A DNA stretch of 37,809 bases from a virus. Taxonomy: Duplodnaviria; Heunggongvirae; Uroviricota; Caudoviricetes. The stretch lies in the IMG/VR virus record IMGVR_UViG_2602041644_000008, positions 1-37,809 of that record; one strand, written 5' to 3'. Shown here piece by piece: positions 2,690 through 36,225 of this stretch. How positions within the stretch are numbered: the first letter of the stretch is position 1; every line of letters begins with the position of its first letter. Made by a program: the position numbers and the translations under genes. The notes beneath the pieces are model-generated. The model did not search any database. It saw only the letters and a program-made list of their open reading frames with translations, and was not told the origin of the DNA.

Positions 2690-3080
2690 CGTCTTTTCTC
2701 CCCGGAATTAACTCGCGTGGATTATCGGAACGGTGATAGAGCCAGATGCCAATTCGTACTGCGACGATTGCTGACACAAATGCGCCAGCAGAGAAAACAA
2801 TCCCTTTCTCGAAAGAGTCCTGCGTGATGGTAGGTATCAGGCTGGCTATGCCGATAAGAATTGATGCTGCTGGTTTGTAGAAAAGAAGTCCGCAGAGAAA
2901 ACTAAGCATCGACAAGAGTACGCGACGACGAATTGGGTACTCTACCGCAGAGGTAACAAAAATTACCGCGCCAGCCAAAGCTCCCAAAGCAACCTCAGGA
3001 GGCACTCCTGCTATCACCGCCGCCAGAGAACTCATGCTAAGCCACTGATTTAATGTTTCACTGGTTAGTTGAGCTGACAT
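2676..3080 (-). CDS. Putative holin-like membrane protein
   Basis: About 134 aa from the ATG at 3080 (SD GGTGG upstream); three hydrophobic segments; first gene of the lysis cassette. Confidence 0.4.
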   Translation of the reverse strand: MSAQLTSETLNQWLSMSSLAAVIAGVPPEVALGALAGAVIFVTSAVEYPIRRRVLLSMLSFLCGLLFYKPAASILIGIASLIPTITQDSFEKGIVFSAGAFVSAIVAVRIGIWLYHRSDNPRELIPGRKDDGNA

Positions 3081-3301
3081 ATTTTCCACCATTTATATGC
3101 ATAACGACCCCCTAAATAGTAAAACATCATGCATGATAAACCATTTGTGGTTTTTTGTTACCCTGACATCGTCAATCCCCTGCCTTTGATGTCGATAATA
3201 AGGCTCGCCTTTTACATAACTCTGAACAGATTGCAGTACAGAAATGATTTAAAATATAGAGGCTTAGTTGAATTCCGCGCCATCAAATGGCGCGGTAGCA
3301 G

Positions 3302-3586
3302 TCAAATATAGAAATAAACACCAAAACAAACAGTAACAGGAACAACAAAGTCAAACAGGCTTCCAACATCCCATACGCGCGGATCAAAACCGCCCCACCA
3401 CGGCATGTTCATACGCTTGCCATGCCCGAACATTTCAATCCAGCGATATTCTGCCTGGGTGTGTTCACGCGCAATGAAGAACGTACAACCAGCTATCGCT
3501 CCATAAGCCCAGTTTCCGGTAAAAAGGCCAATCAGTACCTGCGAAGCCACAGCACAAAACGCATGAAGGAAAGGTGTTATATCCAT
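3302..3586 (-). CDS. Small integral membrane protein of unknown function
   Basis: Start at 3586 has a good SD (AGGAG, 5-nt spacer); 94 aa with hydrophobic helices; sits between tailspike and lysis cassette. Confidence 0.4.
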   Translation of the reverse strand: MDITPFLHAFCAVASQVLIGLFTGNWAYGAIAGCTFFIAREHTQAEYRWIEMFGHGKRMNMPWWGGFDPRVWDVGSLFDFVVPVTVCFGVYFYI

Positions 3587-3620
3587 TATCGCTCCTTTAA
3601 CATAAGGATAAATAAACACT

Positions 3621-5936
3621 TCATAAAATAGATTTCGTCTTTGTAACAATAATATCTACAAAATCACCTGCAGATATAGCTGATGGTACTGTATCTGCAA
3701 GAGTAATCTTTTCTGAAGAGATGTTTTGCACATCTAATAATTTATTTTCAACCCCATCCGTATATACCAATTTGACATCACTGAATGGAGGGTAATAAGT
3801 GACTGTTCCTTGGTATACATATATTTCAATGCCTGAAATTGATTTCACTACATACCTGCCCCTTACAAGATTAATTTTGAGTTCAGATAAATCGGTTTTA
3901 TAACAGGTAATTCCTGAACCAATGTTAGCCATACTAATATCAGTATCACTATAATAAGTAATTGCTTTTCCTTGTTTTAAGGTGAAGTTATCTTTGCTTT
4001 TCCTTGGCAAGGATGTGCTATTTTTGTAATATCTACCAGTTAAGCATAGCCATGAAAATGCAGTATTCGCTACATTACCACCAGAATACACAGCTAAACG
4101 AATTGCACTAACTGGAACCCCTTCATTATTAATCCTGATCTTAATGGAAGAAATGTTAGCAACAGTAGCATATCTATGGTTAGATGAATCCCATTGCATA
4201 GAAGAAGTTATTGCTTCTGTTTGTGAAGTTATGACATTCCCATCTCCATCTAATGCATACAGGTAAATGCGAAACGATGCCGTATCTGCTGAGAATGTAA
4301 ACATATCACCATTTCTTACTGGTACATCTCCAGATTCCCATAACAACCCAAAATTCCGCATAAAAGCAAACTTAGAAGAAACTAGGTGACGGATATTATA
4401 TAAACCATCTACATCTGTTTGATATGCTAATACACCAACTTCTCCATTGTTGGCACTGGATATAAATGGGGTGTTAGCATTTAAAGAAAACAATGTTACT
4501 TCATCGGATATATTTTCCTGAACATGAAATACTGCATTCCCCTTGCCATTATCAGTTACCTCTACATAAGTGTAAGGTGATGGATTGTATGGTTCATTTG
4601 TATAGTAAGGAGAACTTAACCATGAAGCCTCAATTGAGTTATTCCACGTATATTCACCAAAGTTAATTATCAACTGTTGGTTAGTTGGGGATGATGGATA
4701 TCGTTCAAAACGAAACCCGTAGAAGTAATTGTTATCACCTCTTTGAATATCAATTTTACCTGCCCCCTCCATAGTTCCACCATAAAACTTATTGTGGTTA
4801 TGATGATATGGATTATCAGCGAAAATTATATTATTCGTACGATTCAGATAAAAATAGTTTTCATTTATCCATCCGTTCTCAACTCCAAGAAAATGAATTG
4901 TATCGACCTTTTTCAGGTTAAAGGTTGAGTATGCTATTGAATAATCCGTCGATGCCACCGAAGCATTATAATTTGCATATAACTGTAAGTAGTCGCAACG
5001 CTCAATGTTTATATGCTGCCCTTTTGCCCCGATAATACGAATATCCGGTGTCGTTTCAGATGAAATACCAGAATTTCTGATAATCGTTCCGAAGTTTTGT
5101 CTTGGGTTGTTAGGGTTTGATGCATTCCCGCCAAGCAATACCCCTATTCCTGAGTGGGATATGGTAAAAACAGCATTGGTCATTTCGAGGCTGACATTAC
5201 GAAGATTTAATGTCTCCGTAATAATAAAATTACCTTCCGCTCGTAATGTTCTGGATGATTCTCGTGCATATTCTGCAGCCAGGATCAATGCAGATGTATC
5301 ATCTGTTATACCATCGCCTTTTGCCCCAAAATCGCAAACACTAACGGTGTCTCTCATCTTATCCTGGAACGTTCGGTATACTGCTCCAGAACCATACTGA
5401 ATAAACCAACCAAAACCACCAACAACCCCGGCGATTGCAGCATCGACATAATTACGCATTGAGCGATTATTTACAGCGTCCTGCTCAAGTGATGGATCTG
5501 CAAGGTTAGAAATTTTGTTTTGCTTTGCATCGTAATATTTTGCAAGCAAAGATGGTTTCATCAATGCACGTCTGAACCACCCAAAACATTGCTGGATCAG
5601 CATCGTCAGGTAGTCAAAAGCATCTTCATGCACTTCGGGGAAAAATTTTCCCTGATTGCGAAGATCTGTCTCCTGCACTACATCAAGCACACGATCTATC
5701 GTAATTCGCCAGCCAGCAGCAAGCGGAGACGGCAGAACCACTGAACCGCCACTATAAGTGCCCGCCCCAGTTACCGTATAACCGGTATCCAGAACCAATT
5801 CTGTTACGTTCCCGTTCAGGTCAGACACCTGAACAACCAGGTCTGATTTTCTGAAAATTCGAAAAGTATACGGAAACGATGTCGTAACGCCGTTACCTGT
5901 GTATTCGTTGTGGTCAACTTCGGTTGAGACCGTCAT
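3621..5936 (-). CDS. Tailspike protein with beta-helix (pectate-lyase-like) depolymerase domain
   Basis: N-terminus (YTGNGVTTSFPYTFRIF) resembles podovirus tail-fiber/tailspike particle-attachment domains; central motif CDFGAKGDGITDDTSAL is the hallmark of pectate_lyase_3 tailspikes; markedly AT-rich. Confidence 0.8.
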   Translation of the reverse strand: MTVSTEVDHNEYTGNGVTTSFPYTFRIFRKSDLVVQVSDLNGNVTELVLDTGYTVTGAGTYSGGSVVLPSPLAAGWRITIDRVLDVVQETDLRNQGKFFPEVHEDAFDYLTMLIQQCFGWFRRALMKPSLLAKYYDAKQNKISNLADPSLEQDAVNNRSMRNYVDAAIAGVVGGFGWFIQYGSGAVYRTFQDKMRDTVSVCDFGAKGDGITDDTSALILAAEYARESSRTLRAEGNFIITETLNLRNVSLEMTNAVFTISHSGIGVLLGGNASNPNNPRQNFGTIIRNSGISSETTPDIRIIGAKGQHINIERCDYLQLYANYNASVASTDYSIAYSTFNLKKVDTIHFLGVENGWINENYFYLNRTNNIIFADNPYHHNHNKFYGGTMEGAGKIDIQRGDNNYFYGFRFERYPSSPTNQQLIINFGEYTWNNSIEASWLSSPYYTNEPYNPSPYTYVEVTDNGKGNAVFHVQENISDEVTLFSLNANTPFISSANNGEVGVLAYQTDVDGLYNIRHLVSSKFAFMRNFGLLWESGDVPVRNGDMFTFSADTASFRIYLYALDGDGNVITSQTEAITSSMQWDSSNHRYATVANISSIKIRINNEGVPVSAIRLAVYSGGNVANTAFSWLCLTGRYYKNSTSLPRKSKDNFTLKQGKAITYYSDTDISMANIGSGITCYKTDLSELKINLVRGRYVVKSISGIEIYVYQGTVTYYPPFSDVKLVYTDGVENKLLDVQNISSEKITLADTVPSAISAGDFVDIIVTKTKSIL

Positions 5937-6040
5937 GTTAAATCTCCAGATAGTCGCAGCACCCGTTGCGCCGCATATCTGGTTATTCTATTACCCAAAA
6001 AACCATATATGGATAGAAAGACTGTGAATATGAATAGATA

Positions 6041-6055
6041 TTACCTTTCAGGTAA
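6041..6055. promoter_or_regulatory. Operator-like palindrome TTACC-TTTCA-GGTAA (copy 1 of 13)
   Basis: Perfect inverted repeat with A/T flanks, intergenic between the tailspike start and the small antirepressor-domain gene. Confidence 0.6.
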
Positions 6056-6092
6056 TTTGCAAAACGTGCTGGATAGCAAACAAATTATTTGC

Positions 6093-6112
6093 TACTGTAT
6101 AAATATACAGTT
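6093..6112. promoter_or_regulatory. LexA (SOS) box
   Basis: TACTGTATAAATATACAGTT versus consensus TACTGTATATATATACAGTA (CTGT-N8-ACAG intact); 21 bp upstream of the ATG at 6133. Confidence 0.65.
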
Positions 6113-6132
6113 ATTGCATGGAGAAGATTAAG

Positions 6133-6390
6133 ATGCAGCAGTATCACTATCCACTGGAAGACGGATTTACCGAAAGGATTCACACGCCGGGAGGCGTCAG
6201 GTCACTGGTGGAGGGATCGCACTTGATGAAATTACTCCGGGATCTCGATAAGGATGGATTTAATGTCGATGGCCCACTTGCCGAACTGACTGCACTGATT
6301 AACTACGTCACCAGCTCACAGATGTCTATGCAGGATCTGCAAACACATCTCGACTATTGTGCCGAACAATTACGAAAACAAACCACATAA
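6133..6390 (+). CDS. Stand-alone antirepressor C-terminal domain protein (candidate SOS-induced antirepressor)
   Basis: SD GGAG upstream of the ATG at 6133; 85 aa; clearly alignable with the C-terminal ~80 aa of the BRO-N antirepressor at 7536-8228 (IHTPGGV..LMKLL..DG..V.GPLAELT...Y......L.DLQTH). Confidence 0.55.
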   Translation: MQQYHYPLEDGFTERIHTPGGVRSLVEGSHLMKLLRDLDKDGFNVDGPLAELTALINYVTSSQMSMQDLQTHLDYCAEQLRKQTT

Positions 6391-6396
6391 AGAAAA

Positions 6397-6412
6397 GGCC
6401 GCTAGAGCGGCC
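6397..6412. terminator. Bidirectional terminator between convergent genes
   Basis: GGCCGC-TAGA-GCGGCC hairpin with T-rich flanks on both strands; overlaps the stop of the minus-strand gene. Confidence 0.5.
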
Positions 6413-7140
6413 TATCGTTTCGCTTTGTGCTCGTCCCAGCACGTTTTGCACCATGCCATTAAGCCATCCGCATTTTGATTATTAGGGTAAAAGCTGGTTC
6501 GTTTTCTGCGGACATTACAAATTGGGCACCACTTCATATGGCGTGTATTCTTTGGACCATCGAGACACCTTGCACACCACTTAGTCAATCCATCTGGATT
6601 TTTTGACGATTTCCTGAATTTTTCATATGGAAGGTTTATTCTGCATCGCAAGCACTGCTTGCTACCACTTGAAACTCTGTTAGCTGATTCTTCTTTTGGC
6701 GGCGATACAGAAGGTATTCTTGCTGGCTCTGATACTGCCTGAGGTGCTTTTTTAGATGACTGAGACGATATGTCATCACCAGGGAATCGTCCATGATATG
6801 CCGGACGCGTTGACACTCCAGGTGGAAGCTCTGCTGTAAATGGCTTTGGCTGAATCAGTTGCCTCTCTTTTGCTAACTCCTGCTGTTTATAATATGTCTG
6901 GATTACCGCACTATCATAAGCAGGAGGTGCGGAAATATTAGGCGCATTACCTCCAGTTTTTTGAAACTGAGTAGAGGTGTGTTCTATCACCTGTGTACGA
7001 TTAATCGTTATCTCCCCATCTTCGGTCTTTATCGTTTTGTTATGATTAACGACCGTACGATCAGAGATCTTAGTCTTGTTCTGGTTGATAACATAAATAA
7101 TCACCGCAACCACACCAACAACTATCCAGAAAACTTCCAT
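6412..7140 (-). CDS. Membrane-anchored protein with two C-terminal zinc-ribbon-like repeats
   Basis: N-terminal TM helix, Pro/Ser-rich linker, then two repeats of C-x2-C ... DGL-x3-WC-x2-C; AT-rich gene; no family recognised. Confidence 0.5.
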   Translation of the reverse strand: MEVFWIVVGVVAVIIYVINQNKTKISDRTVVNHNKTIKTEDGEITINRTQVIEHTSTQFQKTGGNAPNISAPPAYDSAVIQTYYKQQELAKERQLIQPKPFTAELPPGVSTRPAYHGRFPGDDISSQSSKKAPQAVSEPARIPSVSPPKEESANRVSSGSKQCLRCRINLPYEKFRKSSKNPDGLTKWCARCLDGPKNTRHMKWCPICNVRRKRTSFYPNNQNADGLMAWCKTCWDEHKAKR

Positions 7141-7160
7141 TGCTTTTCCTCACAATAACA

Positions 7161-7175
7161 TTACCTTAAAGGTAA
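7161..7175. promoter_or_regulatory. Operator-like palindrome TTACC-TTAAA-GGTAA (copy 2)
   Basis: Perfect inverted repeat 21 bp upstream of the minus-strand gene start (7140). Confidence 0.6.
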
Positions 7176-7253
7176 TATCTTGCTTTCAGGTGATCAAGCG
7201 TTAAACGCAATCAACCAAATAAGGTTGATTTTAATATTTCTTCGCGTTTATCA

Positions 7254-7268
7254 TTACCTTTTAGGTAA
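7254..7268. promoter_or_regulatory. Operator-like palindrome TTACC-TTTTA-GGTAA (copy 3)
   Basis: Perfect inverted repeat at the start of the structured leader upstream of the antirepressor. Confidence 0.6.
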
Positions 7269-7535
7269 ATTTACATCGCACTCCTCTTGTGCCATAGTAA
7301 TTGGGCACTGGCAAAATCCAGTGCCGGGATTGGTCTCCCGGATTACTACAGAGGCACATATGCCGCATAAGCGGTTTTTTTATGTGTAAAGCGCACCTAT
7401 TCTATGGTGAGCTGTGTGGGGGCACCGAAAGGTGCGCCGGGTTCCTTTGTAGCCGGTAAGACCAACTCTGCACAGTTCACCACCATCTGATTGGTCTCAG
7501 CGGTGGTGATTAACCTAACTACAAAGGTGATCGCC

Positions 7536-8228
7536 ATGAATACCAAACCTTCCATCTTTTCCTTTGAGTCATCCTGCCAGATCCGTATGTTCATGATTGA
7601 CGGAGAACCTTGGTTTGTCACCAAAGATGTGTGCAATGCTTTGAATATTGATGTTACACAAGCGAGAAAACTTGATAAAAAAGGCTGGAACAAAAAGGGG
7701 CTGTATTCAATACAGACCCCTGGTGGAATACAAGAACTATCCATCGTTTCAGAATCAGGTCTCTACATCCTTATTCTGCGTTGCAAAGAGGCAATGACAG
7801 AGGGAACGAGAGCGTTCAGATTTCTTGAATGGGTTACAGGTGAGGTTCTTCCTCAGATCCGCCGCACCGGAAGTTACATTAAAAACTCGCTCCCGCAGGA
7901 AGAACGCATAAAGATGGTTGCCGACCAGGTAGCCAACGCCACAGCATCAGCAATGATGCAGGCAATGAAGATAGAGAACAAAACCTACAGTGCCCCACTG
8001 AAGCCCGGCTACCGTAGCCTGATTCATTCTCCGTCTGGTGTTCTCGGCCTGACGGAGAACTCACTGCTGATGAATCTGCTGAACCAGTTACAGGAAGACG
8101 GGCACGATGTATCGGGCGCGGCGGCGGAGCTGACCACCATGTTCTGCTACATCGTCGGTGTGAGCAAATGCCTGCGTGATATCCAGACCCACGCGGAGTA
8201 CATCAACGACAAAGCAGGATTCTTCTGA
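7536..8228 (+). CDS. Antirepressor with N-terminal BRO-N domain and C-terminal antirepressor domain
   Basis: SD AAGGTGA before the ATG at 7536; N-terminal region (IRMFMIDGEPWFVTKDVCNAL ... GLYILILRCKEA ... FRFLEWV) matches the BRO-N fold pattern; C-terminal domain paralogous to the small gene at 6133-6390. Confidence 0.65.
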   Translation: MNTKPSIFSFESSCQIRMFMIDGEPWFVTKDVCNALNIDVTQARKLDKKGWNKKGLYSIQTPGGIQELSIVSESGLYILILRCKEAMTEGTRAFRFLEWVTGEVLPQIRRTGSYIKNSLPQEERIKMVADQVANATASAMMQAMKIENKTYSAPLKPGYRSLIHSPSGVLGLTENSLLMNLLNQLQEDGHDVSGAAAELTTMFCYIVGVSKCLRDIQTHAEYINDKAGFF

Positions 8229-8258: not shown

Positions 8259-8300
8259 TAATTCTGTACAGATTGCAGACCGGGGGTGAATAGCGTACTA

Positions 8301-8315
8301 TTACCTTAAAGGTAA
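8301..8315. promoter_or_regulatory. Operator-like palindrome TTACC-TTAAA-GGTAA (copy 4) with adjacent promoter
   Basis: Perfect inverted repeat directly after a candidate -35 TTGCAG / 17 bp / -10 TACTAT; 43 bp upstream of the 8358 cassette. Confidence 0.6.
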
Positions 8316-8357
8316 ACCTGTTTTTATTTTATACCTGTAACTTACCGGAGATTAAAG

Positions 8358-8684
8358 ATGACAAAACTTGGATTCGTGATGAGAGGTCCGGTAAGAAGCG
8401 GAACTCATGCAAAGCGTAGCAAGAGTCGTATTTTTACTGGTAAGGTTGTAGCACGTAAATCAGCTATTGGCTCGTTCAATAGTGAAAATGCGGCATTGCG
8501 CCATATTTTTATCAGCACAAAGCCAAGAGCATCCGCTGATGTGCATACAATGTCTATTCCTATCACAAAGAATATCAAGCGGATAAAAAAGCTCTCATCT
8601 GCAGAATCAAAAGAGATATCTTTCCGCCAGCTTAACTCATTAGAAACGCATATGAAGGAAGAGGAATTCGATGTTTTTGAGTGA
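8358..8684 (+). CDS. Small basic protein, putative antitoxin/partner of the YafO-like gene
   Basis: SD GGAG 8 nt upstream; 108 aa, Lys/Arg-rich N-terminus, acidic C-terminus; 14-nt overlap with the downstream gene (translational coupling). No homolog recognised. Confidence 0.4.
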   Translation: MTKLGFVMRGPVRSGTHAKRSKSRIFTGKVVARKSAIGSFNSENAALRHIFISTKPRASADVHTMSIPITKNIKRIKKLSSAESKEISFRQLNSLETHMKEEEFDVFE

Positions 8685-9183
8685 GTATAGCGGGAAGGTT
8701 ATACCTACTGGTGAGTTTAAAACTGATGACTTTCTGATTTCGCTAAAAGATGCTTTTAAACAACACTGGCGTCATGGTCATCATCCTGATCTGGGAAAAG
8801 ATACTCTTTTTGAAAGACCAGACGAAGTATTAGGCTTCCATCTCAGAAAGGTTCATGTCAATATTGGTGAATATGCATCATATTCATACTCATGTACTGA
8901 ACAGTGTTGGGATGAGTGGTCATATGGATTGATTGATGAACAAGGAAATTACAGGCCAAAACCAACCAGTAACGCATATCTCATATATGCAGTCAATGAA
9001 ATAAGAGATGCAGCCTTACTAGCTTATTGGGACCCGCCCGCACACACCAAAGCTAACGCAAAAGTTTGGATGGATTCCGTATTGAATTTCACAAAATTAT
9101 TTCATGAACGAACTAATACAGCTCCACTTAGTAGAAATGTTTATCCGTGGGATTATTCGTACAAATCCAAAAAGCCTGCATAG
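8671..9183 (+). CDS. YafO-family toxin-like protein (putative ribosome-dependent mRNA interferase)
   Basis: Strong SD (GGAAGAGGAA); segments LGKDTLFE, LRKVHVNI and YLIYAVNE...ALLAYWDPPAHTKA resemble recalled YafO motifs (GRDALYD, ERVAHIHL, HLVYCQG...WLLIAILKPEPHKLA). Recall-based; needs HMM confirmation. Confidence 0.45.
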   Translation: MFLSEYSGKVIPTGEFKTDDFLISLKDAFKQHWRHGHHPDLGKDTLFERPDEVLGFHLRKVHVNIGEYASYSYSCTEQCWDEWSYGLIDEQGNYRPKPTSNAYLIYAVNEIRDAALLAYWDPPAHTKANAKVWMDSVLNFTKLFHERTNTAPLSRNVYPWDYSYKSKKPA

Positions 9184-21400: not shown

Positions 21401-21451
21401 CTTCTTTCTCCATTAGTGGGTCTGTTACGACCCACAGGTTAATAACAGGCG

Positions 21452-25433: not shown

Positions 25434-25448
25434 ATTACCTTTCAGGTA
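25434..25448. promoter_or_regulatory. Operator-like palindrome TTACC-TTTCA-GGTAA (copy 5)
   Basis: Perfect inverted repeat ~90 bp upstream of the portal-side operon; TTGACA hexamer 17 bp upstream on the plus strand. Confidence 0.55.
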
Positions 25449-25771
25449 AGCAAAGAGTTCATTCCGGTTATTAACCTGACTGGCTTGTCGTTAAATTGAA
25501 CAGGTGGAGTGAGCTTTTATTTTGAGCAGTACGGCGTATGGCACATGCGCCGATAGCGGTCTGGATACGTTTAAGGGGTACCCTCCCTTGCTCGGGCAAA
25601 CGAACCAGGTAGCCGGAATGTGCAAGTCGAGCGGTTTTATTCCGCGCACGGGGATTCACCATCCCGGCGATTCGGTGTGACGCCTCGGAAGAGACGAGGG
25701 TACAACGATGAGAGCATTTATGGAGCCGCGACAAAGTGTGGCGCCTTAACAGGCTAAGTGCTCTCAGCGTT

Positions 25772-25848
25772 GTGGCATTAGCTCAGTTGGACAGAGCAAC
25801 CGCCTTCTAAGCGGTTGGTTGCAGGTTCGAATCCTGCATGCCACGCCA
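25772..25848 (+). tRNA. tRNA-Arg (anticodon UCU)
   Basis: 77 nt; acceptor stem GTGGCAT/ATGCCAC, D-stem GCTC/GAGC, anticodon stem ACCGC/GCGGT with loop CTTCTAA (anticodon TCT), T-arm GCAGG-TTCGAAT-CCTGC, discriminator G and encoded CCA. Confidence 0.85.
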
Positions 25849-33174: not shown

Positions 33175-33177
33175 GAT

Positions 33178-35640: not shown

Positions 35641-36225
35641 ATGAAAAGTATCCAGGACGTCCGCAGGCAAAATCTCAACGACTTGATCGACCGTGAATTC
35701 AATGGTGTTCAGACGCGGATGGCTGAAAAACTTGGAACTCAGGCAAATCTGGTAAACCGCTGGGCTCTTGGCAAGAAGGTTATCGGCGACCAGGTTGCGC
35801 GAAAAATTGAAGCTGCCGCCAATAAACCCCGTAACTGGCTTGATATCGATCGCTCGCTTTCTCAGGAAGGTTTTCAGCCTGTCGGACCAAGCGACATTGG
35901 TCAACTGGCGGCTCACAACCTGGAACGCTGGATGAGCGAAAGCCGCGACCTTTCAACGCAGGGAAAACTTCACCGCGCATCCGGCGTCGCCCAGGTAACA
36001 ATCAGCCGCCTGTTAAACAATGAGGTCAGCGTTTCCATTTCCACCCTGGAGAATGTTGCATCCGCATTTGGGCGTCACGGATATGAATTACTGATTCACC
36101 CGCACGACCCCGCGACTATCAACTATGACCGCTCGCGCTACGCATTGTTACCTGAAACAGAGAAGGCAAAGATCGAAAGTTACATTGAATTTGTCATCAA
36201 CCAGAACGAAAAAAACAAACAATAA
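35641..36225 (+). CDS. Prophage repressor candidate, tandem HTH (XRE-type), no autocleavage domain
   Basis: 194 aa with two HTH-like segments (QTRMAEKLGTQANLVNRWALG and SGVAQVTISRLLNNEVSVSISTLENVA); no Ala-Gly/Ser-Lys protease signature seen; divergent from cro; followed by a terminator. Confidence 0.55.
   Translation: MKSIQDVRRQNLNDLIDREFNGVQTRMAEKLGTQANLVNRWALGKKVIGDQVARKIEAAANKPRNWLDIDRSLSQEGFQPVGPSDIGQLAAHNLERWMSESRDLSTQGKLHRASGVAQVTISRLLNNEVSVSISTLENVASAFGRHGYELLIHPHDPATINYDRSRYALLPETEKAKIESYIEFVINQNEKNKQ

Follow-up and report, generated by a model that had tools for sequence, protein, structure and literature searches.

The region at positions 6040–6413 of the window (the whole stretch of 37,809 nucleotides analysed here) is very probably, as its sequence indicates, the arm through which the lytic switch of a phiV10/epsilon15-like prophage senses the SOS response. 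By similarity to sequenced phages, the window is classed as an epsilon15/phiV10-like prophage of the genus Uetakevirus: the region shares 91–98% DNA identity with the Escherichia phages TL-2011b, EC.W1-9, ZX5 and phiV10, and the ant segment shares about 78% with the Salmonella epsilon15-like phages. The predicted LexA–Ant–Rep switch is recognised as the E. coli (phiV10-type) form of the published SPC32H system, and its mechanism is already known. The features of this region are as follows.

5984–6012, minus strand: likely divergent tailspike promoter (-35 TCCATA, -10 TAGAAT), from conservation and its SPC32H equivalent.
6040–6056, no strand assigned: Rep operator, a perfect 17-bp palindrome ATTACCTTTCAGGTAAT, one of 11 sites in the window and annotated in epsilon15.
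6070–6098, plus strand: predicted ant promoter, with -35 TGGATA at 6070–6075, a 17-nt spacer and a TG-extended -10 TGcTACTGT at 6090–6098, from conservation.
6093–6112, no strand assigned: LexA (SOS) box TACTGTATAAATATACAGTT, 18/20 to the consensus and conserved in 10 phages.
6120–6123, plus strand: Shine-Dalgarno GGAG, 9 nt before the ATG, invariant in the alignment.
6133–6390, plus strand: ant, an 85-aa antirepressor and ortholog of SPC32H Ant, from protein homology, the structure match and codon differences.
6396–6413, no strand assigned: GC-rich hairpin, a bidirectional terminator between ant and a convergent 242-aa gene, with equivalents annotated in epsilon15 and present in SPC32H.

The product of the gene at 6133–6390 was 88% identical over 84 aa (99% of the query, tblastn) to SPC32H_020, annotated as 'ant: anti-repressor protein', and 35 phage records were matched by the same 85-aa query. 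A phmmer search of solved structures gave one chain only, 5D50_E (86 aa, 'Anti-repressor protein'; E=1.3e-47), and among the PHROG families the product matched phrog_450 (E=1.4e-47). The codon differences between this gene and SPC32H ant are 34 synonymous and 9 nonsynonymous, and this excess of synonymous changes indicates that ant is under purifying selection. The longest open reading frame begins at 6118 (90 aa). The ATG at 6118 is not in frame with ant in phiV10 or in the Salmonella phages, whereas GGAG at 6120–6123 and the ATG at 6133 are invariant in a 10-phage alignment. The locus is arranged as in the relatives, with ant pointing away from the tailspike gene, as the sole gene on its strand, and followed by the bidirectional terminator. 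Pfam and NCBIfam scans of Ant found no domain, the weak DUF724 match being far below the cutoff. The initial annotation had proposed a check against antirepressor/KilA-C models; in the Pfam scan, neither the 85-aa product nor the BRO-N protein described below matched the KilA-C/ANT domain (PF03374) at E≤0.1, and that relationship was not upheld.

The single-domain form of this protein had been regarded as an unusual minimal architecture. A profile built from Ant and the C-terminal domain of the BRO-N protein was searched against 1.84 billion cluster representatives and returned only 59 relatives at E≤1e-3, most of which were stand-alone proteins of 80–95 aa. The stand-alone form of about 85 aa is the predominant architecture of the Ant family, and it is also the form of the published SPC32H Ant, so that what had seemed exceptional is the family norm. 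The diversity of the family was drawn from this representative-library search and from the contigs that encode the homologs; two other homolog and locus searches gave near-identical stand-alone copies only. The encoding contigs of eight stand-alone homologs, which are only 30–45% identical, were compared. In seven of them the homolog lay divergent from a large tailspike-like gene, as ant does, and in five to six a LexA-like box lay 16–29 bp upstream of the ATG (for example TACTGTATAAATGAACAGTA, GTCTGTATATTTATACAGTT and TACTGGATAAATATACAGTT). The presence of such boxes in these distant lineages suggests that LexA control is a trait of the family.

In the window, 196 bp separate the tailspike gene (3621–5936, minus strand) from the 85-aa reading frame. 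The LexA box within it, TACTGTATAAATATACAGTT, has two mismatches to the E. coli consensus TACTGTATATATATACAGTA, both outside the CTGT/ACAG cores, which bears out the 18 of 20 matches first reported for it. It is the sole site in the window with three or fewer mismatches; such a site was found in 0 of 100 shuffles, and by analytic calculation about 1.9e-4 would be expected per window. The other CTGT-N8-ACAG matches in the window, at 21422 and 25964, both have GC-rich spacers. The box had been placed 21 bp before the start codon; it does lie just upstream of the ATG at 6133, but the gap is 20 nt and 21 is the offset.

The predicted -10 element of the ant promoter overlaps the left half of the LexA box. 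A generic sigma-70 scan did not call this promoter (7/12 matches), and its hexamers were therefore assigned from conservation. For this purpose the intergenic region was aligned among 10 phages of Escherichia, Salmonella, Enterobacter and Klebsiella whose Ant proteins are 60–100% identical. The elements CTGGA.A (-35) and TG.TA.TGT (-10) are invariant in these phages, as are the operator half-sites together with GGAG and the ATG. The greater part of the right half-box (A.AGT) is likewise invariant, its C is kept in 9/10 sequences with SPC32N as the exception, and the Klebsiella phages have ATGT in place of CTGT. Across the 10 phages, the cores of the LexA box are conserved and the spacer is variable. 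In SPC32H, the order of operator attaccttacaggtaat, box tactgtatgtttatacagtg, GGAG and ATG is equal to the layout of the window.

SPC32N and SPC32H showed two differences in the 1052 nt compared, one of which is a C>A change in the CAG of the LexA box. Kim and Ryu are said to have found the two phages to be two nucleotides apart, and one altered nucleotide in the LexA site, which overlaps the ant promoter, reportedly led to constitutive Ant and a virulent-like phage. We take the C>A change in the box to match this constitutive-Ant phenotype. It is extremely unlikely that the palindrome arose by chance as an AT-rich promoter element, or that it serves the divergent tailspike promoter and not ant. 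The box does overlap an AT-rich promoter region, and the tailspike start codon is 157 bp away from it. However, chance would yield only about 2e-4 sites, variation is found in the spacer and not in the conserved CTGT/ACAG cores, and the SPC32N mutation falls within a core. The probable tailspike promoter at 5984–6012 lies about 80–110 bp from the box; its -10 (ATTCTA at 5984–5989, read as the reverse complement) is invariant in the 10 phages, and the promoter scan detected its counterpart in SPC32H (TTCATA-17-TAGAAT). The constant spacing of 16–29 bp before the ant ATG in the distant homologs also argues that the box belongs to ant.

The presumed target of Ant is encoded at the other end of the window.

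35641–36225, plus strand: rep, a 194-aa two-domain HTH repressor, from homology to 5D50_A and 5D4Z.

The window Rep matched the 'Repressor' chain 5D50_A with E=4e-42 over residues 1–190, and 5D4Z_A was also matched. It contains an HTH_3 domain at residues 106–147 in its C-terminal half and a weaker HTH at residues 21–61 in its N-terminal half, and it gave no match to the Peptidase_S24 autocleavage domain. This agrees with the earlier description of a repressor with two HTH segments and without an autocleavage domain. The window Rep is 100% identical to the repressors of phiV10 and ZX5, whereas it shares only 43% identity with SPC32H Rep (53% in the N-terminal domain and 39% in the C-terminal domain), compared with 88% for Ant. 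Because of this mismatch, the conservation of the Ant–Rep interface is an assumption. Across the phages examined, the divergence of Ant and that of Rep are loosely coupled; Ant may touch a few conserved residues of Rep, or recombination may exchange the ant region separately from the immunity region. The much higher conservation of Ant could mean that it recognises a small invariant surface and works across immunity types.

Matches to the operator sequence ATTACCTNNNAGGTAAT within two mismatches numbered 11 in the window against 0.13 expected (6040, 7160, 7253, 8300, 25434, 33177, 33239, 35185, 35570, 36282 and 36344), and weaker copies are present in the rep–cro intergenic region. The operator copy first noticed at 6041 is real and occupies 6040–6056. 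Its ATTACC-N5-GGTAA is invariant in the 10 phages, and its equivalent is annotated as a 'repressor' protein_bind in the GenBank record of epsilon15. This operator lies 13 bp upstream of the predicted -35 of the ant promoter, is centred about 57 bp before the likely transcription start of ant, and precedes the -35 element of the probable tailspike promoter by about 28 bp. Two operator pairs are 62 bp apart, namely 36282/36344, which flank the core of a strongly regulated early promoter, and 33177/33239. At 62 bp downstream of 6040 there is no second Rep operator; the LexA box occupies that place.

Taken together, the 88% identical SPC32H Ant ortholog, the SPC32H-type Rep and the equal layout support the original proposal that a small LexA-controlled antirepressor induces a prophage whose repressor does not cleave itself. 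In the lysogen, host LexA bound at 6093–6112 would cover the -10 element and the start site of the ant promoter and keep ant silent. After DNA damage, active RecA would cause LexA to cleave itself, and ant would be transcribed and translated into the 85-aa protein. By homology with SPC32H, Ant would form a tetramer, bind Rep and split the DNA-binding Rep tetramer into dimers. By the same analogy, Rep would be released from the dispersed ATTACC-N5-GGTAAT operators, and the early and lytic promoters would fire. Ant is expected to be the link between SOS and induction because Rep has no autocleavage domain. We infer LexA binding, the action of Ant on this Rep and the promoter hexamers for this phage from the observed sequence elements, their conservation and the orthology to proteins of solved structure.

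The counterparts of these steps are described for SPC32H. It is stated, with reference to Kim & Ryu 2013, that self-cleavage of LexA leads to Ant synthesis and inhibition of the repressor (PMC7380047), and it is reported that a Rep tetramer binds DNA and that an Ant tetramer binds two Rep dimers, breaking the Rep tetramer (PMC9638917); for SPC32H, both LexA control and the Ant–Rep complex are presented in the literature as demonstrated. Induction data exist for close relatives of the window phage. The Rep of ZX5 is identical to that of the window, and its Ant is 100% identical over the 84/85 residues that align. ZX5 was reported in 2022 to be inducible by mitomycin C, from 10^7 to 10^9 PFU/mL (PMC9782041), and a 2026 preprint reported that prophages of the phiV10 species were induced 21- to 47-fold by a DNA-damaging microcin. 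Both inductions fit the SOS–Ant route for a repressor that does not cleave itself.

A second protein in the window carries an Ant-like domain.

7536–8228, plus strand: BRO-N::Ant-like fusion antirepressor of 230 aa, with the Ant-like domain at residues ~147–228, from Pfam, PHROG and PDB matches.

This protein matched Pfam Bro-N (E=2e-13), and its residues 147–228 matched phrog_450 (E=3e-37) and 5D50_E (E=9e-14). Residues 2–75 of Ant are 42% identical to residues 149–222 of the BRO-N protein (E=7e-16), which confirms that the 85-aa product is homologous to the BRO-N C-terminus, and no third copy of the domain was found in the window. The 230-aa protein is 80% identical to ORF4 of ZX5, with the C-terminal ~120 aa identical. 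Overexpression of ORF4 lowered lysogeny and decreased the prophage count about 1000-fold (PMC9782041), and the 2022 study of ZX5 treated only this BRO-N protein as an antirepressor (PMC9782041). The Ant-like domain is covered by PHROG families annotated as anti-repressor (phrog_130 and phrog_1760). One AntA protein has a C-terminal domain identical to that of the window, and related C-terminal domains were found on Phage_pRha N-domains.

The initial annotation had described the 85-aa protein as a duplicated effector domain. That the copies are homologous stands, and their lying 1.6 kb apart in one genome would agree with a recent within-genome duplication of the part of the BRO-N antirepressor gene that encodes the C-terminal effector domain. 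We nevertheless judge such a duplication very unlikely. The copies are only 42% identical, the stand-alone gene keeps its position, divergent from the tailspike gene, across the relatives examined, including those without the fusion, and the fusion is located in a variable accessory insert that is absent from SPC32H. The occurrence of the Ant-like C-terminal domain on AntA and Phage_pRha proteins, including the identical copy on AntA, points to domain shuffling rather than local duplication.

Another explanation concerns the division of work between the two proteins. The small Ant might be controlled by LexA without being the main inducer, being redundant or acting in trans on the repressors of other prophages in a crosstalk of the Gifsy type, while the BRO-N::Ant-like protein mainly induces. 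Such a role would agree with the much higher conservation of Ant than of its supposed target (88% versus 43%), with the effect of ZX5 ORF4, whose overexpression pushes the phage toward lysis, and with the trans-acting antirepressors documented in Salmonella (PMC3121763; PMC7380047). We consider it unlikely, since Ant is what SPC32H and epsilon15 rely on, although neither carries a BRO-N fusion in the vicinity of ant. The phiV10 copy of the fusion breaks off within the Ant-like domain, whereas both the small ant of that phage and the LexA box before it are intact, and there is no LexA box ahead of the BRO-N gene.

The BRO-N gene is preceded by its own set of regulatory elements.

7160–7269, plus strand: two Rep operators (7160–7176 and 7253–7269) bracketing a promoter-like TTGATT-18-TATCAT (7225–7254), from operator and promoter scans.
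7292–7487, plus strand: isrK-like RNA with terminator (7305–7381), c4 a1/b1 target (7292–7344) and C4 antisense RNA (7400–7487), from Rfam.

In Rfam, isrK scored 74.7 bits (gathering score 50) and C4 scored 78.2 bits (gathering score 45), while c4-a1b1, with 38.3 bits, fell short of its gathering score (46.7). In C4, the loop CCUUUGUAG is an exact 9-nt complement of CTACAAAGG at 7519–7527, the ribosome-binding site of the BRO-N gene, and AAGACCAA of C4 is a 7-nt complement of TTGGTCT at 7491–7497 and 7330–7336. When the whole C4 was paired with its flanks in RNAduplex, the values were lower than the mean of the shuffled flanks by about 1.6 and 3 sd and lay within the shuffle range; C4 targeting was judged from the exact loop complementarities only. 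The module is found in ZX5 and phiV10 and is absent near SPC32H ant. An isrK/C4 module with a modular antirepressor was also seen beside ant in four divergent lineages, where the Ant-like C-terminal domain was clear in one and weaker in two.

We tentatively propose, as a possibility with less than even likelihood, that the phiV10-like phages have a lytic switch with two inputs that both use one Rep-binding fold, in which a LexA-gated Ant is combined with an isrK/C4-gated Ant-like domain that is joined to an N-domain of the BRO-N, AntA or Rha type. If this is true, the LexA input would report DNA damage, and the isrK/C4 input would report superinfection or an RNA/Hfq-dependent signal. As both antirepressor genes carry Rep operators, inactivation of Rep would feed back on both. 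The recurrence of the pairing beside ant in relatives that are only 30–45% identical suggests selection and not accident. The pairing with an RNA-controlled antirepressor of shared fold would be a modest extension of a mechanism that is already known. The remaining points of interest are the paired, differently gated antirepressors of one fold and the mismatch of conservation between Ant and Rep.

The main value of the present result is for annotation. The segment with ant and its box (6030–6400) was found at 90% identity or more in 529/5426 complete E. coli genomes, and in the RefSeq records listed the gene is labelled 'hypothetical protein'. A widespread protein that is outside all Pfam and NCBIfam models is hereby recognisable as an SPC32H-type Ant. 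This identity would account for the response of widespread prophages to DNA damage despite a non-cleavable repressor, and the prophages concerned include the O157 and O103 serotype-converting phages.

The regulatory logic of the switch is like that of coliphage 186 Tum, GfoA/GftA of Gifsy-1/3, Fels-2 Tum (PMC3121763) and N15 AntC: the repressor is non-cleavable, a LexA box is placed on the promoter of a small antirepressor, and inactivation occurs by protein–protein contact. The initial annotation made its comparison with the Gifsy phages, 186 Tum and N15 and missed the actual family, which is SPC32H Ant. Compared by family hits, Ant shares no Pfam, PHROG or NCBIfam family with 186 Tum, GfoA/GftA or N15 AntC, and its relatives make up a small family of their own. 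The SPC32H authors are said to have described Ant as structurally distinct from the antirepressors of Sipho- and Myoviridae.

The closest known system is SPC32H (Kim & Ryu 2013, J Virol 87:11775; Kim et al. 2016, PNAS; PDB 5D50, 5D4Z), which belongs to the same genus as the window phage. The two phages have in common the two-domain architecture of Rep, the LexA box overlapping the ant promoter with a Rep operator upstream at equal positions, and an ant locus between the tailspike gene and late genes of the opposite strand. They differ in the length of Ant (86 aa in SPC32H and 85 aa in the window phage) and in Rep, as the window Rep is of the phiV10 type and has only 43% identity to that of SPC32H. 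The E. coli phages also have an extra 3.9-kb insert after ant, which includes the isrK/C4-controlled BRO-N::Ant-like gene.

In the modular phage antirepressors with BRO-N, AntA or Rha N-domains, and P22 Ant, the Ant-like domain is a C-terminal module behind Bro-N, AntA or Phage_pRha. The small ant differs from these, as its product has no N-terminal module and is not a KilA-C/ANT Pfam domain. The module at 7160–8228 is, by its sequence elements, of the design of P1 immI and Gifsy-1 isrK. It resembles P1/P7 immI (c4 RNA-icd-ant) and Gifsy-1 isrK-orf45-anrP (PMC4825925) in its isrK/C4 RNAs, the complementarity to a ribosome-binding site, the upstream copy of the target and the repressor operators at the module promoter. 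Unlike in those systems, there is no icd- or orf45-like reading frame between C4 and the antirepressor gene. The regulated protein in the window is a BRO-N domain fused to an SPC32H-Ant-like domain, and the module adjoins a second antirepressor that is predicted to be controlled by LexA.

The 85-aa antirepressor Ant (6133-6390) was found to be 88% identical to Ant of Salmonella phage SPC32H, while the two-HTH repressor Rep (35641-36225), its presumed target, shares 43% identity with SPC32H Rep, and 39% in the C-terminal domain. The antirepressor is thus far better conserved between the two phages than its target. Despite the divergence of Rep, the operator half-sites are the same in the window phage and SPC32H.

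The Rep operators at 33177/33239 and 36282/36344 are paired, with a spacing of exactly 62 bp from centre to centre, and the latter pair flanks a strong promoter (TTGACA-17-AATTAT). Two palindromes at this distance would fit with contact by one Rep tetramer. The operator at ant (6040) is single and has no partner. A probable promoter lies on the other strand of this region:

5984-6012, minus strand: probable promoter of the tailspike gene, pointing away from ant

Its -10 element, TAGAAT, is invariant in all 10 phages of the ant-upstream alignment, and the promoter scan called the SPC32H counterpart (TTCATA-17-TAGAAT). In the epsilon15 record, an IHF site is annotated between this probable promoter and the Rep operator.

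Other genes of the prophage include the following:

6412-7140, minus strand: gene of a 242-aa protein (phrog_6762), convergent with ant
8358-9183: 108-aa gene (phrog_5933) and an overlapping 170-aa gene
25772-25848: tRNA-Arg(TCT) gene, inside the prophage

The 242-aa protein carries a hydrophobic segment in its N-terminal part and Cys-rich repeats in its C-terminal part; the repeats show a weak resemblance to Stc1, endonuclease VII and Lar-like zinc ribbons. In TL-2011b, the counterpart of this protein is either interrupted or annotated no further than "similar to hypothetical protein". A Rep operator (8300-8316) precedes the 108-aa gene, and the match of the 170-aa product to a YafO-like toxin is weak and does not reach the cutoff (E=9.5e-4). 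Together the two genes may form a Rep-controlled moron resembling a toxin-antitoxin system. Another Rep operator (25434-25450) is located near the tRNA gene.

The fused Ant-like domain was also followed in other proteins, including one of phiV10:

L004 (phiV10 sequence region) 3071-3750: BRO-N "anti-immunity protein" (phiV10p23/p22)

Here a frameshift truncates the Ant-like C-domain, the match stopping at residue 181 of 194, so the type phage phiV10 is probably without a functional fused copy; its small ant is intact. P0121, a 216-aa metagenomic/genomic protein, carries an AntA N-domain, and over its last ~80 aa it matches the C-domain of the window BRO-N protein with full identity. P0121 directly documents a recent exchange of the N-domain on one and the same Ant-like module.

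An RNA module spanning 7292-7487 precedes the BRO-N::Ant-like gene of the window:

7305-7381: isrK-like sRNA with terminator, upstream of the BRO-N::Ant-like gene
7400-7487: C4 antisense RNA, upstream of the same gene

The ribosome-binding site of this gene (7519-7527) is complementary to the C4 loops, as are repeated TTGGTCT sites. Judged by these features, the region is a predicted translational control module of the type known from P1 immI and Gifsy-1 isrK.
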